Below are positions 14,021 to 20,493 of a DNA stretch of 64,000 bases, in pieces. The DNA comes from a virus (taxonomy: Duplodnaviria > Caudoviricetes). The notes beneath the pieces are model-generated. The model made no database searches, had not been told where the DNA came from, and worked only from the letters and a program-made list of their open reading frames with translations. Positions within the stretch are counted from its first letter, which is position 1. The number at the start of each line of letters is the position of its first letter. The translations under genes were made by a program, and so were the position numbers. The stretch spans positions 32,001 through 96,000 of the IMG/VR virus record IMGVR_UViG_3300028048_000069; one strand, 5' to 3'.

Positions 14021-15544
14021 ATGGGCAAAATTACATCTAAACAAGATGTTATTCGCGAATATAAATCGTTGTTAAACGATTTTCTATCAACAACAGGTTC
14101 AAATAAAATCACCAGAAAATATTATAGGGAACATTCAAAATTTCCTTATTTATATGAAAAATTTTTTGGCAGTTTTGATGAATTAAAGAAAACCTTTTCA
14201 ATAGACCTACCTGAAAGAAAAATAATCAAAAAACGAGTAGTAATTTCTTCCATACTTCCTAATACAGAATTAGATAAAGATTTTATTCAAGCAATGGAAA
14301 ACTATTGTTTGAATAATAATGCTCAATTATTATTAGTTCCTATAAAGGGTGTTCGTGGAGAAACAACTTTTGATGAAAAAATAATGGTTAGATATGGCGG
14401 TTATTTTACAACAGAAGCAACCTTTAATGAAAATCTTAAATTAGTAAATACAGGTATAACTGCAAATAATAAAAATCCTTTAGTAAGTATAAAAGAGTTA
14501 GGCCATAAAGAATATTCTACAATTGTAGCATCCACTAAACAATGTATGGAGATGATACCTTCCATAAATAAAGGTAAAACTCATTTAATTTATTTAACAG
14601 GCACTTGTTCTAAACCTATTTACAATAAGAATATAACTGGTACAATAAATGCAAATAACAATAAAGTAGGCGGTTTAGTAGTAGAGATAGAAAGTGATAG
14701 AATATTTTACATAAGAAATATTGAATGGATAAATGGATACTTTGTAGATTTAAATAAAGCCTATTATAAAGACCATATAGAAAATATACAAGCAGAAGCC
14801 ATTGTAGCAGGGGATTTGCATTTAAGTGGCGACGAAGATGATAAAGCATTAGACTTATTAGATAAGGAAATGCGCCTACTTAAAGCAAAAAGGCTCGTAA
14901 TTCACGATTTTTGTAGCCATAATACAATTAATCATCACGAACAAGATAATTGGATTAAAATGGCAAAATTGACAAATAAATTCCATAGTTTACAAGATGA
15001 GCATAAATATACCGCAGAAAGGTTTAACAAATTTGCTAAAGATTTAAAAAATGTTGAATTTATAGTTGTAAAAAGTAATCACGATAGATGGTTGCATAAG
15101 TATTTAGGAAATAGAAGTTTATGGATTAAAGATAATTGTAATGCTTTTTATGCTCATACCTTATGTGGATATGCTCTACAAGGTATGGATCCTTTTGAGG
15201 CCACTATGAGAACATTTTTAGATAAAAAATTAAATGTTAAATTTCTTATGGATGGGCAAACTTATAGAATAGCCGATACAGAACTATCTTTACATGGCGA
15301 TATAGGAAATAATGGGGGACCTGCAACATTAAGAAGTATAGAATTAAGTGCTGGAAAATGTATTATAGGGCATAGTCATCAGCCTAGAATGGGTTTTTAT
15401 GGAATACAAGTAGGAACAAATACAAAGGTCGATTTAGGTTATAATATTGGTGGTAGCAGTTGGCATAATGGTAATGCCAGTTTATATAAAGATGGGCATA
15501 AACAATTGCTTTTGGGTGTAAATTATAAGATTTCAATAAAATAA
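14021..15544 (+). CDS. T5 A1-like metallophosphoesterase-fold nuclease
   Basis: GDLH, SNHD, HGDIGNNG and GHSH motifs; 507 aa. Confidence 0.7.
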   Translation: MGKITSKQDVIREYKSLLNDFLSTTGSNKITRKYYREHSKFPYLYEKFFGSFDELKKTFSIDLPERKIIKKRVVISSILPNTELDKDFIQAMENYCLNNNAQLLLVPIKGVRGETTFDEKIMVRYGGYFTTEATFNENLKLVNTGITANNKNPLVSIKELGHKEYSTIVASTKQCMEMIPSINKGKTHLIYLTGTCSKPIYNKNITGTINANNNKVGGLVVEIESDRIFYIRNIEWINGYFVDLNKAYYKDHIENIQAEAIVAGDLHLSGDEDDKALDLLDKEMRLLKAKRLVIHDFCSHNTINHHEQDNWIKMAKLTNKFHSLQDEHKYTAERFNKFAKDLKNVEFIVVKSNHDRWLHKYLGNRSLWIKDNCNAFYAHTLCGYALQGMDPFEATMRTFLDKKLNVKFLMDGQTYRIADTELSLHGDIGNNGGPATLRSIELSAGKCIIGHSHQPRMGFYGIQVGTNTKVDLGYNIGGSSWHNGNASLYKDGHKQLLLGVNYKISIK

Positions 15545-15547
15545 TTG

Positions 15548-15576
15548 TTGACAAATCATTTATAATTTTGTAGTAT
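15548..15576 (+). promoter_or_regulatory. Sigma70-type promoter
   Basis: TTGACA-N17-TAGTAT upstream of 15599 ORF (GAGGT RBS). Confidence 0.6.
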
Positions 15577-15598
15577 ATAATTTAGAGGTACTATAAAT

Positions 15599-15928
15599 AT
15601 GTACATTGATAATATTAAAAAATTGCACGACCAATTAAAAGAACTGATATTTGTATGTGATGATATAGAAACAGCAGATGCAGATGGTCAAGGGTATGAT
15701 TTAGATAATCTCATATCTATTATTAATAAATGGATAAATTCATCAATATGGAATATGAAAAGTGATGAATTTAGAATGCATTTTGGAGAATGGGAAGATA
15801 AGGATTTAAGTGATGTATTTTGGCCTTATGCAGATACAGTAATAGAGATGAAAGATAAATTGCGGAAAGATTATAATAAGTTAGTAAGAATAGATTATAG
15901 ATTGAAGGAAGAATTAAAAGTCAAATAA
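15599..15928 (+). CDS. Hypothetical protein
   Basis: 109 aa ORF with RBS and promoter. Confidence 0.65.
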   Translation: MYIDNIKKLHDQLKELIFVCDDIETADADGQGYDLDNLISIINKWINSSIWNMKSDEFRMHFGEWEDKDLSDVFWPYADTVIEMKDKLRKDYNKLVRIDYRLKEELKVK

Positions 15929-15962
15929 AAATTAGTATAATATGTATATATAGGAGAACAAG

Positions 15963-16385
15963 ATGACAGAAAAAATCGAAGTTTCGTTGACTTTTAATGA
16001 TTTTGCTAAAAATCACAAGTCAGCGATTGAACTAAAACAACTAGATGCTAAAAATTATAAGGCATTATTAACTGTTAAAGCGGTAGAAGACCAAACTAAA
16101 GATATTGGTTTTTCTGATGCTTGGAAAAAAGAATTAGCAGATAAAATTGCTGAATTAAAACCATTAGCAGAAGAAGAATTAAAATCAGCAAGCGAAAATA
16201 TTAATACTTATTTATTCAATTTGGTAAAAGAAGTTATTGCTTATCATAGAGCAGTAGTAGAAATGCCAAAGGATGAAAAGATTAAAGAATTATCAAATAC
16301 AATTCGTTCTATTATTGCCGCAGGTGGCGGTCAATTGGAAGCAGAATTTGTATTTAATTTAGTTAAAGTGTTGTACATTAAATAA
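15963..16385 (+). CDS. Hypothetical protein
   Basis: 140 aa; AGGAG RBS; TTAGTATAATAT at 15932. Confidence 0.7.
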   Translation: MTEKIEVSLTFNDFAKNHKSAIELKQLDAKNYKALLTVKAVEDQTKDIGFSDAWKKELADKIAELKPLAEEELKSASENINTYLFNLVKEVIAYHRAVVEMPKDEKIKELSNTIRSIIAAGGGQLEAEFVFNLVKVLYIK

Positions 16386-16416
16386 GTATAATATAATTGA
16401 TATTTGATAATATGAT

Positions 16417-16489
16417 TGCGGAGAAGACAGCCAGTGCGGTCGGGAGTCTCATAAACTCTTCTAGATTGGTGCAACTCCAATCTCCGCTA
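16417..16489 (+). tRNA. tRNA-Met(CAT), atypical; possibly initiator (unpaired 1:72)
   Basis: Acceptor (T)GCGGAG/CTCCGC(T)A; anticodon arm GGAGT-CTCATAA-ACTCT; T arm ATTGG-TGCAACT-CCAAT. Confidence 0.75.
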
Positions 16490-16494
16490 TAATT

Positions 16495-17335
16495 ATAAGC
16501 AGATATATGTCGGAGGCAGAAGTGTATATCACAATATAGATTAATTACCTATTATTGTAAAATGCTTGGGAAACGCAGGTCGGGAATAGTGAACTTCGCG
16601 AATACATTGGCCGATAATACCGACAGCCCACGATTTAGGTGTAATAACCTAATAAAAAGGACATAAGGAATGGTAGTGCTCTTATGTGTGCCAATGGAAT
16701 GGAGTGTGAATGCCTACTTACGCTTTAGGTAACTATAGTAAGTCCTAAAGAAGTGGTTCCAAGGGTACGGGAACTGAAAACTAGACCCATTAGTGTAGTT
16801 TCGGCTACCTTAAACAAACCGAATAACGCTTGGCTTTAAAATCTGACAATGGATGGAACGACTCCAATTAAAATAAAGTTCCTGCCAAGTTTGGATATAA
16901 GAGTATTGTAGCAATCCTTTAGATAATTTTCTTCTAAAGCAAAAAACTATAAGAAATTATATCTTAAATTACTAGAAAGGTAATACAGCAAGTGATGGTT
17001 TGTTGGCTTGTGAGGACAAGTTATTAACATAGTATCCTATTAGGTAGAGTTCATCACTACCGAGATAGGAGAGTTTAGATGACTAAACCTTAAACCGATG
17101 TCAGGAATGAAAAGTGTACTGACTTCCTCCTAGTAAGTAGTGATATTATATAAATGCTGTAAATATAGCGACTTGTGGCTAGTGATTACTATTTATATAA
17201 TGTTTATTGACAACCTACTCGGGCTTAACTATATACGCGAGGACGCGAGAATAGACCGCCAAAACAGAGTTATAAGAGATACTAGTTAATTCTTATACAA
17301 GTTTTACCACTTTACTTGAGGAGCCATAAAGTGGA
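16495..17335 (+). ncRNA. Giant structured ncRNA candidate (GOLLD/ROOL-like)
   Basis: ~840 nt without a sizeable ORF between two tRNAs; many local hairpins, long-range helices and a pseudoknot; boundaries approximate. Confidence 0.6.
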
Positions 17336-17346
17336 TGATATTTTAT

Positions 17347-17417
17347 TCCCTTGTGGTGAAACAGTATCACGATCGGCTGTTAACCGATTATTCTGGGGGC
17401 AGAACCCAGCGAGGGAG
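17347..17417 (+). tRNA. tRNA-Asn(GTT), atypical T loop
   Basis: TCCCTTG/CGAGGGA acceptor; ATCGG-CTGTTAA-CCGAT; T arm CTGGG-GGCAGAA-CCCAG. Confidence 0.85.
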
Positions 17418-17429
17418 TTCACTTTAATT

Positions 17430-17789
17430 ATGTTTTTTGATAGACTTAAAAATTGGTTATTTAAATATAACATAGAAACAGATGCTTATTCAGTTGGTGA
17501 GAAGATAAAAATATATGTGAGTTATATGTGTGGTAAAAACCATAATGAGTTTGGTGCTCGCGTGTGTAAATCAGATAAGTATAATCACTATAAAGACAGT
17601 ATTTGTTTTAAAGATGAAGAAGATGTTTTGAATTGGGTATGTAACCATAAACCTAGTTTTATAAGTCTTATATGTAATATTGAAGACCATAAAGCATCGG
17701 ATTTTTTTGGTATATTTGATAAACTACCCCAATATGTAAATAGAATAAAAGAATCATATTGGGAGAATGGTTTTAAGATATTTGATTAG
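17430..17789 (+). CDS. Hypothetical protein
   Basis: ORF trimmed to first ATG after tRNA-Asn. Confidence 0.55.
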   Translation: MFFDRLKNWLFKYNIETDAYSVGEKIKIYVSYMCGKNHNEFGARVCKSDKYNHYKDSICFKDEEDVLNWVCNHKPSFISLICNIEDHKASDFFGIFDKLPQYVNRIKESYWENGFKIFD

Positions 17790-17795
17790 ATTTAA

Positions 17796-17869
17796 GCGGG
17801 TATAGTTCAGTTGGTTAGAACGCTGCCCTGTCAAGGCAGAGGTCGTCGGTTCGAGTCCGATTGCCCGCG
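17796..17869 (+). tRNA. tRNA-Asp(GTC)
   Basis: Canonical cloverleaf, CTGCC-CTGTCAA-GGCAG, TTCGAGT T loop. Confidence 0.95.
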
Positions 17870-17879
17870 AATTTTATTT

Positions 17880-18086
17880 ATGAAATATTTAGCATTATTT
17901 ATTTGTATATTTTTGCCCTTAATATCATATTCTAAAGTGACACTTAAAGCAACTGGATATGTAGTTGTTAGAATAGTTAGTAATGAACAACTTATAAATT
18001 CTGATACATTGGTTGAGAATAAACAAATAGGTAATGAATTAGTTTATAGTTATATAAAAGATAATACTATAAATTATGTATTTTAG
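17880..18086 (+). CDS. Small secreted/membrane hypothetical protein
   Basis: MKYLALFICIFLPLISYS signal-peptide-like start after tRNA-Asp. Confidence 0.5.
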   Translation: MKYLALFICIFLPLISYSKVTLKATGYVVVRIVSNEQLINSDTLVENKQIGNELVYSYIKDNTINYVF

Positions 18087-18091
18087 ATTTC

Positions 18092-18165
18092 GCGCTGATA
18101 GCTCAATTGGTTAGAGCATCCGACTCATAATCGGCAGGTTCAAGGTTCAAGTCCTTGTCGGCGCA
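18092..18165 (+). tRNA. tRNA with CAT anticodon, probably tRNA-Ile2 (else elongator Met)
   Basis: Canonical cloverleaf; CCGA-CTCATAA-TCGG arm resembles bacterial Ile2. Confidence 0.85.
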
Positions 18166-18186
18166 GAAAATTAGTATAATATTATT

Positions 18187-18410
18187 CATAAGAGACTTCA
18201 AGGACCTGTTTCCTTTGTGCGGTGGTTTGCTACTACCACTGAAGTCGTAAAGTAGCACTCCTTTTGATAATTTTTATTGAGTTAGGACACACCTCGGACT
18301 CAATAAAAGTGGAAATGGGTGATGTAGAGGCCAAGGCTGTTCTACACTTCCATCTATTTTGAGGGATACTGGTACTCCCAATACCACAAAAAACCAGTAT
18401 TTTATTTATT
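18187..18410 (+). ncRNA. Structured 5' leader / sRNA candidate upstream of arginine decarboxylase
   Basis: TTAGTATAATAT at 18171, then ~240 nt non-coding with four stem-loops. Confidence 0.45.
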
Positions 18411-18423
18411 GGAGATAATAACA

Positions 18424-18975
18424 ATGTACGAAGCATATGTACCTAAAGAAATATTTCTTACAAAAGGTATAGGTAGGCATAAAGAGAAATTAGCAAGTTT
18501 TGAAGAGGCATTAAGGGATGCTAAAATAGCAAGTTATAATATTGTTCCAGTCTCAAGTATTTTTCCACCACATTGTAAAATTATCTCAAAAGAAAAAGGT
18601 GTAAAGTTATTAAAACCAGGTCAAATTTTACATTGTGTAATTAGTAGAAATACTTGCAATGAAGCACGCAGATTAATATCTGCATCAGTAGGTGTAGCAA
18701 TTCCAAAAGACCCTAATCAACATGGTTATTTATCGGAACATCATAGTTTTGGGGAAACAGAAAAACAAAGTGGAGATTATGCAGAAGATTTAGCAGCATT
18801 AATGTTATCTACTACTATTGGAATTGACTTTGATAATGATACTACTTGGGATCAAAAAGAACAGATTTGGAAAATGAGTGGTAAGATTGTAAAAACAACA
18901 AATATTACTCAATCAGCAATTTGCGCTGATGATGTATGGACAACAGTAGTGGCAGCGGCAGTATTTGCTAGTTAG
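18424..18975 (+). CDS. pdaD: Pyruvoyl-dependent arginine decarboxylase
   Basis: SFEEALRDA, YNIVPVSSIFPP (Ser-Ser self-cleavage site), GYLSEH, WTTVVAAAVF; GGAG RBS. Confidence 0.92.
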   Translation: MYEAYVPKEIFLTKGIGRHKEKLASFEEALRDAKIASYNIVPVSSIFPPHCKIISKEKGVKLLKPGQILHCVISRNTCNEARRLISASVGVAIPKDPNQHGYLSEHHSFGETEKQSGDYAEDLAALMLSTTIGIDFDNDTTWDQKEQIWKMSGKIVKTTNITQSAICADDVWTTVVAAAVFAS

Positions 18976-19008
18976 TCATTTAGATTTTATTGTTATTTGA
19001 AAATTTAT

Positions 19009-19092
19009 GGCCAGATGGCGGAATTGGTATACGCGACAGACTTAAAATCTGTTGGTTGCAAAATCTTGAGGGTTCGAGTCCCTCTCTGGCTA
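19009..19092 (+). tRNA. tRNA-Leu(TAA)
   Basis: GGCCAGA/TCTGGCT; ACAGA-CTTAAAA-TCTGT; long variable arm. Confidence 0.92.
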
Positions 19093-19100
19093 TTTAAAAT

Positions 19101-19172
19101 GCCTTCTTCGTCTATCAGTTAGGACATCAGATTTTCAATCTGAAGAGAGGAGTGCGACTCTCCTAGAAGGTA
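19101..19172 (+). tRNA. tRNA-Glu(TTC)
   Basis: GCCTTCT/AGAAGGT; TCAGA-TTTTCAA-TCTGA; T loop TGCGACT. Confidence 0.88.
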
Positions 19173-19176
19173 ATTT

Positions 19177-19248
19177 GCCCTTATAGCTCAATGGATAGAG
19201 CACCCGCCTTCTAAGCGGATGATATAGGTTCGATTCCCATTAAGGGTA
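19177..19248 (+). tRNA. tRNA-Arg(TCT)
   Basis: GCCCTTA/TAAGGGT; CCGC-CTTCTAA-GCGG. Confidence 0.9.
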
Positions 19249-19258
19249 ATAATTTAAT

Positions 19259-19343
19259 GCTCAGTATGTTCCAATGGTGGGACAGCGGACTGTAAATCCG
19301 CCGCACTCGTGCATGGTAGGTTCGATCCCTACACTGAGCACCA
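19259..19343 (+). tRNA. tRNA-Tyr(GTA)
   Basis: GCTCAGT/ACTGAGC-A-CCA; GCGGA-CTGTAAA-TCCGC; variable arm. Confidence 0.92.
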
Positions 19344-19454
19344 TTTTAATAACCACACGAACGATAGGGTAATGCCTAGTTGATATTTTGGTGTTTAAGT
19401 GAATTGCTTAACAGAGAAGGGCAACTCTGGGTATAAATGCCCAATATATTTTAT

Positions 19455-19531
19455 CTACGTGTAGGATAGATGGTTATTCCGCGACACTTGGGCTGTCGAG
19501 ATCGCAGGTTCGAATCCTGCCACGTAGACCA
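19455..19531 (+). tRNA. tRNA-Pro(TGG)
   Basis: CTACGTG/CACGTAG-A-CCA; CGACA-CTTGGGC-TGTCG. Confidence 0.92.
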
Positions 19532-19535
19532 TTTT

Positions 19536-19624
19536 GGAAAGGTGGCAGAGTGATTTATTGCACCGCTCTTGAAAAGCGGCAACGGAGATAACTTCGTTCG
19601 TGGGTTTAAATCCCACCCTTTCCG
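19536..19624 (+). tRNA. tRNA-Ser(TGA)
   Basis: GGAAAGG/CCTTTCC-G; CCGCT-CTTGAAA-AGCGG; long variable arm. Confidence 0.92.
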
Positions 19625-19638
19625 TTTTATTTATATAG

Positions 19639-20493
19639 ATGATAACTAAAGCAATAATAAACTATGGAATGGGCGATGCACTTAATGCTAGAACATTCCT
19701 ATTAAATTATTGTAAGCAAAAGAAATTGCCTACAAGTTCAATATCTATATATACTTTAAAATATTGGTGGATGTTCGAAGGATTAGGATTTAGAAGAAGT
19801 CTTAATAAAGATAGGTTTTTTAAATTGGTACCTTATAGAAATTTTGGAAAATATGATCTTCCAAAAATTTATAATGATAAGAAATTGGATTTATGTATCG
19901 CACATAATGCAGGCATAGATTTTAGTTTTGATTATATAGAATTTCTTCCAAAATATGAAGAACCTAATATAGATTTACCAGAAAAATTTATTACTTTTAA
20001 TACTGGTTATGGGGAATTATCAGGAAAACCACACGATTTAGGTTATGTTTGTACAAAATCCTGGCCTGTCGAATATTGGCAAAAATTAGTAGATTTATTA
20101 AAGATTCCTTGTGTACAAATAGGGGCTGGAAAAAGTTGTAGTATAATAAATAATACAGCCTTAAATTTAGTAGATAAATTAAATATTAAGCAAAGTGCGG
20201 AAGTAATGAGAAAATCTTTGTTTCATATAGATATAGAGGGCGGTTTACCTATATTAAATCAGCATTTAGGCGGAAAATCAGTAGTATTATTTGGACCTAC
20301 TGCTATAGAACAGCAAGGAAGAAGTTTTAATTTAAATTTAAGAGCAAATACTTGTACTCCTTGTTATGAGTGGGGAACAAACGATAAAAGTTTAGCAATG
20401 CTTAAAAAAGATTTACCTTGCAATGCTCATTGTATGAAGGATTTAAAACCAGAATATGTAGTAGATGAAATCTATAAGAACAAATGGTTATGA
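19639..20493 (+). CDS. Glycosyltransferase family 9 (heptosyltransferase-like)
   Basis: GMGDAL, KSWPVEYW, NLVDKLNI, IDIEGGL..L, VVLFGPT, CMKDL.PE.V GT9 pattern. Confidence 0.85.
   Translation: MITKAIINYGMGDALNARTFLLNYCKQKKLPTSSISIYTLKYWWMFEGLGFRRSLNKDRFFKLVPYRNFGKYDLPKIYNDKKLDLCIAHNAGIDFSFDYIEFLPKYEEPNIDLPEKFITFNTGYGELSGKPHDLGYVCTKSWPVEYWQKLVDLLKIPCVQIGAGKSCSIINNTALNLVDKLNIKQSAEVMRKSLFHIDIEGGLPILNQHLGGKSVVLFGPTAIEQQGRSFNLNLRANTCTPCYEWGTNDKSLAMLKKDLPCNAHCMKDLKPEYVVDEIYKNKWL

Follow-up and report, generated by a model that had tools for sequence, protein, structure and literature searches.

Large Structured RNAs in Phages

To our knowledge, very few bacterial or phage RNAs of more than 500 nt with a conserved complex fold have been described, and for none of GOLLD, ROOL and the RNAX of phage T5 do we know of a function. 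ROOL is large and ornate, with several junctions and pseudoknots, and its genes lie close to tRNA islands in phages and prophages. Its first sighting was in the cow rumen; it is very abundant, and it has no assigned function (PMC5737381; bioRxiv 10.1101/2024.12.08.627333). GOLLD reaches at least 800 nt, is associated with phages and often adjoins tRNAs, one studied member lying downstream of a Met-tRNA. Its 3′ part is conserved and its 5′ part is variable, and ribosomes have been reported to bind it (bioRxiv 10.1101/2024.12.08.627333).

The rnaX gene of T5 spans 719 nt (AY543070, 40848–41566) and is annotated as a misc_RNA, 'stable RNA with unknown functions'. A promoter lies upstream of it, a tRNA-like piece is found close to the 5′ end, and the 3′ end abuts tRNA-Arg. 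A blastn search with rnaX returns 525 matches; among the matches listed, all are in phages of enterobacteria. These relatives consist of conserved blocks interrupted by variable inserts. In the RNAX of Epseptimavirus-type phages, one conserved hairpin loop contains CGGAGG, and a nearby hairpin loop holds a palindrome that differs between T5 and the Epseptimavirus-type phages (L025 versus L026–L031) while being palindromic in both. These two loops would fit loop–loop contacts in RNAX itself.

The locus described below lies in a rumen phage, at the head of a tRNA cluster. It is a real, expressed, structured, non-coding RNA locus, and it is a composite of folded units. The first-pass annotation of the region had proposed a single ornate non-coding RNA of about 840 nt; the structured and expressed nature of the RNA holds, as seen from covariation and from contigs of RNA sequencing runs, while its unity does not, one of the units (module A) being separable from the rest.

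The Phage and the Setting of the Locus

The window, i.e., the whole stretch of 64,000 nt that was analyzed, corresponds to bases 32001–96000 of a 136,046-bp virus record in IMG/VR, which is complete and carries direct terminal repeats. Nearly all sequencing runs that hold the stretch are gut and rumen samples (bovine, goat, sheep), and no close cultured phage was found. Two ORFs upstream of the RNA tract, the ORF at 14021–15544 has a PHROG match to the T5 A1 'DNA transfer protein'; its product is 25–29% identical to the A1 proteins of T5-like and other phages. Downstream of the tract, ARAGORN calls nine tRNA genes on the same strand. The elements that flank the tract are the following.

15548–15576, + strand: promoter-like site that fits the consensus at 10 of 12 positions; a weak candidate by consensus match alone
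16418–16488, + strand: tRNA-like cloverleaf; canonical 7-nt anticodon loop with CAU, 3-bp D stem, non-canonical T loop
17347–17417, + strand: tRNA-Asn (GUU); Rfam tRNA match of 44.7 bits

The promoter-like site could possibly be the start of a transcript that comprises two small ORFs, the RNAs and tRNA-Asn, and a contig of high depth from one RNA run (X1) starts at this site, at position 15542. No terminator-like site was found in 15400–18300.

The first-pass annotation had placed the tract between tRNA-Met and tRNA-Asn. The latter is borne out by its Rfam score, while the supposed tRNA-Met is sub-threshold and is drawn only by ARAGORN with relaxed settings. By default, ARAGORN makes no call at 16418–16488, and there is no Rfam tRNA match at E ≤ 10; the relaxed search yields a cloverleaf with CAT and a D stem of 3 bp in the window as well as in its relative L002 (see below). 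Compared to L002, the acceptor and anticodon stems carry one compensatory change each and, by eye from the alignment, the T stem carries two. The element is likely a processing signal or an aberrant tRNA. A Tymo_tRNA-like match of 31 bits is under the cut-off of 40 and is absent from L002, and was taken as a coincidence of loop sequence. As for tRNA-Asn, it is missed by ARAGORN even with relaxed settings, and its T loop departs from the canonical form. At the corresponding place in L002 stands a tRNA-Asn with a higher score, followed by a second tRNA-like match.

Some further observations concern the surroundings. L002 has an extra ORF of 148 aa (L002:6017–6463) between the gene of a 140-aa protein and the tRNA-like element, which the window lacks; this shows the head of the tRNA cluster to be an insertion hot spot. 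The pyruvoyl arginine decarboxylase gene at 18417–18974 of the window shows a high depth in RNA runs (~190–250), but the contigs concerned are only 80–90% identical and run into unrelated sequence, and therefore represent homologues from other organisms rather than the phage. Finally, Rfam recognizes a group I intron at L002:9573–9766, with 55.4 bits against a cut-off of 50. Its insertion point corresponds to 19043/19044 of the window, in the anticodon (19043–19045) of the intact tRNA-Leu(UAA) found there, and ARAGORN makes no tRNA-Leu call in L002. The position resembles that of the classical tRNA-Leu intron of cyanobacteria and plastids.

A Non-Coding Tract

From 16386 to 17315 (930 nt; 16386–17346 for the stretch as a whole), the window contains no ORF that reaches 60 or 80 aa. 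With either cut-off this is its longest ORF-free tract, as had been claimed before, the runner-up being the tRNA cluster with 663 nt. The tract is also richer in GC than its surroundings, in agreement with the first-pass annotation (0.33–0.40 compared to 0.27–0.30 in the flanking genes). Every frame has stops, 12–29 per frame. When TGA, TAG or TAA is read through, no frame opens across the tract; the longest frame obtained by reassigning a single stop codon, TAA in this case, runs over 152 codons and lies on the minus strand. A coding or recoded gene is rejected, as stops occur in all frames and reassignment opens none: the DNA is non-coding.

The predicted folding energy is lower than that of shuffled sequences on the + strand (z = −3.2) and on the − strand (z = −3.7). 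Since both strands beat their shuffles, folding energy alone is weak evidence. The arms of all hairpins listed in the first-pass annotation are present where it had placed them; those other than the helices supported below fall in lineage-specific parts of the tract.

Relatives of the Tract

The tract is carried by L002, a 13.5 kb contig whose A1-like protein is 85% identical to that of the window and which was also recovered as L005 and L006. Three blocks are 81–83% identical between the two, i.e., 16385–16621, 16758–16956 and 17210–17330. The first two are separated by unrelated sequence (136 nt in the window versus 255 nt in L002), and between the second and the third lies a piece of 253 nt that is found only in the window. 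L004, with an A1-like protein that is 71% identical, has no such tract. A variant from sheep rumen, seen in the RNA run X20, has 116 nt in place of 16891–16977 and 30 nt in place of 17114–17211, with a CCUCC motif kept.

A blastn search of the tract against 50,697 phage records returned nothing. Eight pattern scans of viral contigs, one of a metagenome and one of genome contigs gave only chance matches beyond L002 and L007, a phage described below; L008–L014 and L021 were rejected as members, being chance pattern matches without the other motifs. Searches guided by proteins led to L002–L004 and L006 only, and for the neighboring 140-aa protein, Logan and ENA contigs encode 57 relatives that are 60–98% identical.

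Module A, a Separable Folded RNA

The 5′ part of the tract forms a unit referred to as module A, for which a model (R1) was built on 16495–16632.

16497–16630, + strand: module A, a folded RNA of 135 nt
16498–16501/16563–16566, + strand: stem P0, closing a junction that holds hairpins P1 and P2
16502–16510/16522–16530, + strand: stem P1, with an invariant 11-nt loop containing GGAGG
16568–16570/16627–16629, + strand: stem P3a, enclosing a loop together with P3b
16579–16583/16620–16624, + strand: stem P3b, with two compensatory changes between the window and L002

The loop enclosed by P3a and P3b contains an 8-nt palindrome (16595–16602) and a conserved GATAAT (16613–16618). P1 differs from its L002 equivalent by four compensatory changes.

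A gapped pattern derived from the first conserved block led to L007, an unrelated complete phage of 49 kb, in which R1 has a 137-nt match of 74.5 bits (E 3e-14). In the three phages (window, L002 and L007), the P1 11-nt loop, the joiner AAACGCAGG and the segment GGCCGATAATACC are invariant. The palindrome of the inner loop occupies the same spot in each, with 8 nt in the window, 12 nt in L002 and a different sequence of 6 nt in L007. Covariation is extensive: 15 of the 30 pairs are changed on both sides and 93% of the cells pair, while in a control in which the partners were slid by 1–3 columns pairing drops to 35–42%, with 0–1 pairs changed on both sides. The folds of the locus are under selection.

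Each genome has one copy of module A. In L007, it stands between a tRNA whose anticodon is CTA (tRNA-Pyl according to ARAGORN) and an ORF that resembles thyX by eye, and nothing resembling the rest of the window tract was found in this phage. Looking at L007:9453–10827 as a whole, the amber-reading CTA tRNA, module A and the thyX-like ORF are followed by ~440 nt of GC-rich DNA, which has no ORF of at least 50 aa on the + strand and no Rfam match; it may be another structured RNA. R1 found no match in 151 genomes around a Lachnospiraceae MAG and 151 around a Bacteroidales MAG, both of which are arbitrary samples, so that this result carries little weight.

Anatomy of the Large RNA

Module A is followed by a large RNA that combines a conserved core with swappable peripheral domains.

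About 16636–17335, + strand: large RNA of ~700 nt
16631–16755, + strand: 5′ hairpin domain, lineage-specific, holding three of the hairpins listed earlier
16756–16788, + strand: H1 (16756–16760/16770–16774) with an H-type pseudoknot formed by its loop (16763–16766/16785–16788)
16789–16890, + strand: most conserved core, with ~4 differences from L002 over roughly 100 nt
16828–16834/16884–16890, + strand: H2, an invariant helix of 7 bp
16901–16909/17210–17220, + strand: H4, a long-range helix closing a junction with H3 and the window-specific insert
16917–16923/16933–16939, + strand: H3, with two compensatory changes between the window and L002
16957–17205, + strand: peripheral domain of ~250 nt with 3–4 hairpins, absent in L002 and partly present in the sheep variant
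17229–17334, + strand: 3′ domain with hairpins H5, H6 and H7
17229–17232/17251–17254, + strand: H5, with an additional inner stem
17271–17276/17292–17297, + strand: H6, invariant
17307–17314/17327–17334, + strand: H7, terminal hairpin with a conserved 12-nt loop containing GAGGAG and four compensatory changes on both sides

Most of the fold of the large RNA is putative, as the comparison covers one full relative (L002, ~82% identical) and one partly seen variant. On the two full sequences RNAalifold yields unstable, over-fitted structures, and MAFFT misaligned block C across the insert; consensus folding being unreliable here, the helices were located directly. For this, all stems possible in both the window and L002 were listed exhaustively. 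Three of them carry four compensatory changes each, and none of 60 column shuffles reaches the observed count (a mean of 0.15 stems with at least three changes). One of these three is an AT-only stem of 5 bp that crosses a block boundary and is given no weight. Covariation among homologues, which the first-pass annotation had suggested looking for, is present. In total, ~12 compensatory changes separate the large RNA from its L002 counterpart. P1, the cloverleaf and H5 contain wobble pairs that are compatible with the + strand only.

Conserved and variable elements alternate along the molecule. In place of the 5′ hairpin domain, L002 has 255 unrelated bases without homology to the window. H1 and the pseudoknot stem next to it have two both-sided compensatory changes each between the window and L002, and the sheep variant shows H1 in the L002 form. 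Independent thermodynamic folds of the window and L002 share just two helices; H2 is predicted with a pairing probability of 0.90 and 0.95 in such folds of the two sequences. In L002, H4 is kept with arms only ~70 nt apart, the insert of 253 nt being absent, and by eye it has two compensatory changes. The long-range helix proposed earlier (16901–16915/17206–17220) is thereby kept for its first two segments. By contrast, an earlier proposed pseudoknot between CATTGGC and GCCAATG is not conserved, as L002 lacks the second arm and, by our own reading of its sequence, L007 the first. The peripheral domain has CCUCC at 17126–17130, and L002 has CCUCC in a different domain. The inner stem of H5 is made of unrelated sequences in the window, L002 and X20, yet each of them forms a hairpin.

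Expression in Rumen Metatranscriptomes

Six of the runs that hold the stretch are labeled metatranscriptomic. The contigs of four of them, each from a different study (X1, X5, X8 and X20), were placed on 14500–19700 of the window. In three studies the RNA is that of the phage itself, at a depth 2–100 times that of the neighboring phage genes. In X1, a contig of 2,255 nt (15542–17796), which also takes in two small ORFs upstream and one downstream, has a depth of 682, compared to 6–17 for adjacent phage contigs. In X5, a contig of 688 nt (16636–17323) has a depth of 49.7, against 2.3 over 16479–16629 and 2.5 over an upstream ORF. X8 has contigs at 16656–17194 and 17170–17325 with a depth of 6–9, and the sheep run X20 has the diverged variant at a depth of 30–53. 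Depth steps of such size within one phage genome do not arise from uniform carry-over of DNA, and the RNA is far above the neighboring phage messages.

The contig data come without strand, exact ends or per-base depth. The end shared by X5 and X8 (17323/17325, in the loop of H7) is consequently only a hint, and so is a start of the abundant RNA just past module A (X5 at 16636, X8 at 16656). Likewise, the X5 gap at 16630–16635 and the low depth over module A are contig-based and prove nothing alone.

Comparison with Known RNA Families

A cmscan search with all 4,227 families of Rfam 15 at E ≤ 10, a check proposed in the first-pass annotation, gave only noise with the 1.2-kb region, L002, and module A and the core taken separately, and no family matched the tract. 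With an E-value limit of 10, the GOLLD model (RF02032, cut-off 150 bits) finds nothing in the window region, in L002 or in the genome as a whole, and the ROOL model (RF03087, cut-off 99.1 bits) finds nothing in a direct cmscan of the 1.2 kb. A whole-phage search with ROOL was empty as well, but this is a weak test as control genomes gave no match either. The suggestion of a GOLLD-like member consequently falls away; the alternative suggestion of a new class may apply. No group I intron (RF00028) was matched at E ≤ 10 in the tract, and this silence is meaningful because the same search detects the intron elsewhere in L002; the group II model found nothing in a whole-phage search. The Rfam scan at E ≤ 10 also detected no tRNA-like remnant inside 16495–17335.

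The rumen RNA is similar to both ROOL and GOLLD in context, size class and abundance, but neither covariance model matches it. Moreover, ROOL and GOLLD are marked by a homo-oligomeric cage made of RNA only, whereas the rumen RNA is known here from its sequence and from contigs. In GOLLD, the conserved and the variable parts are split into halves, whereas they are interleaved in the rumen RNA.

The likeness to RNAX goes further. Both RNAs stand at the head of a tRNA cluster and share the strand of the tRNAs, are of similar size, have a tRNA-like piece at the 5′ side and a tRNA directly 3′, and consist of conserved blocks with variable inserts among relatives. Both phages have terminal repeats and an A1 protein (A1-like in the rumen phage). 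What defines RNAX by position, i.e., a large RNA in a T5-like phage that heads a tRNA cluster, with a tRNA-like 5′ element and an abutting tRNA, is thus all found here. On the other hand, the tRNA-like piece of T5 has a canonical T arm, which the rumen one lacks, module A has no recognizable counterpart in RNAX, and the matches listed for RNAX are in enterobacterial phages while the present RNA belongs to a rumen phage. A profile built from seven diverse RNAX sequences and run with nhmmer on the window, L002 and L007 gave no match, nor did R1, with filters off, on the seven RNAX loci. The two groups have 6 conserved 7-mers in common, compared to 7.3 expected (P = 0.7), and the likeness in motifs, being at chance level, was rejected as evidence of homology. 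The rumen RNA is a positional analogue of T5 RNAX, which is the nearest known thing, and possibly a very distant relative.

A Model for the Locus and Its Alternatives

We consider it rather probable that the locus is a non-coding RNA locus made up of a cloverleaf, module A and a large RNA of ~700 nt, which is processed with the help of tRNAs and acts in trans. Three units on the + strand would stand in a row at the head of the tRNA cluster, with each lineage grafting its own peripheral hairpins onto the conserved core of the large RNA. The units would be transcribed together with the tRNAs, and they would be cut out by RNase P on the tRNA-Asn side and by RNase P or RNase Z on the cloverleaf side. 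Processing of the 5′ end of tRNA-Asn would free the 3′ end of the large RNA, which H7 may shield by blocking exonucleolytic trimming. Near 16630, the transcript may be cleaved, or a new one may begin there under the control of the conserved −10-like GATAAT; given this hexamer (16613–16618), the large RNA could have its own start. During infection, the large RNA would work in trans, either as a stable structural RNA or within an RNA–protein particle, like RNAX, GOLLD and ROOL. Its exposed loops, with the palindrome, GGAGG, GAGGAG and CCUCC, might mediate self-association or contact with the ribosome; this is conjecture, as such motifs are short and prone to occur by chance.

Several other explanations can be weighed against this model. 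The RNA might be a true, highly diverged homologue of T5 RNAX, the order of tRNA-like element, large RNA and tRNA being ancestral in T5-like phages. The position, the 719-nt size, the tRNA-like piece, the upstream promoter and the abutting tRNA-Arg of RNAX all speak for this, as do the conserved blocks with variable inserts, the A1-like protein of the phage, and the occurrence, in the same order in both RNAs, of a CGGAGG hairpin loop and a loop that changes but stays palindromic. Yet blastn, the seven-sequence profile and R1 with filters off are all empty, the common 7-mers (6 versus 7.3) stay at chance level, and L004 lacks such an RNA in spite of its A1-like protein being 71% identical, which leaves true homology possible though unlikely. 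There may also be no single large RNA at all, the tract being an array of independent small folded RNAs with processing spacers. The presence of module A alone in L007, together with its low depth in X5, indicates an array in at least part of the locus, and whole blocks are swapped or missing between relatives; the break in depth in X5 at 16630–16636 also agrees with this. However, H4, which has compensatory changes, spans the 250-nt insert and joins positions 300 nt apart, single contigs of 688 nt and 539 nt from RNA runs cover the body unbroken, and no tRNA-like remnant is found inside 16495–17335, so that an array throughout seems fairly improbable.

The remaining explanations fare less well. 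Inverted repeats rich in AT, and the role of tRNA regions as rearrangement hot spots in such phages, would suit an element acting at the DNA level, such as a replication origin or a packaging site, or decayed tRNA genes rather than an RNA gene. Such an element is very improbable, as some of the compensatory changes give wobble pairs, which can form only in + strand RNA, the depth in RNA runs is far above that of the flanking genes, and tRNA remnants are absent. Even less credit can be given to a very divergent GOLLD or ROOL RNA: it would be found in the same kind of place (in a phage, by tRNAs), with a similar size and abundance, and ROOL was indeed first seen in cow rumen, but searches with both models gave no match at E ≤ 10, be it in the window, the whole genome, L002 or sub-blocks. 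Returning to the composite, trans-acting locus, a bolder extension is that the ~700-nt RNA is the first of a new class of giant RNAs in phages, unrelated by descent to GOLLD, ROOL and RNAX, and that, like these, it would assemble into a multimeric RNA-only particle through its palindromic and GGAGG/CCUCC loops and would target the translation apparatus of the host (ribosomes or tRNAs) in infection. We regard this as a speculative idea with a small chance of being correct. If true, a large self-assembling RNA beside a tRNA island would be a recurrent, convergent device of phages.

Significance for Phage Biology

The locus adds an independent example of a giant phage RNA, whose abundance is directly evidenced in natural rumen communities. 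Its modular anatomy is clear, with a separable module of 135 nt that is common to an unrelated phage. The natural domain-swap variants would make the RNA convenient for structural work. If large folded RNAs next to tRNA islands arose several times, this would point to a general task in phage infection.
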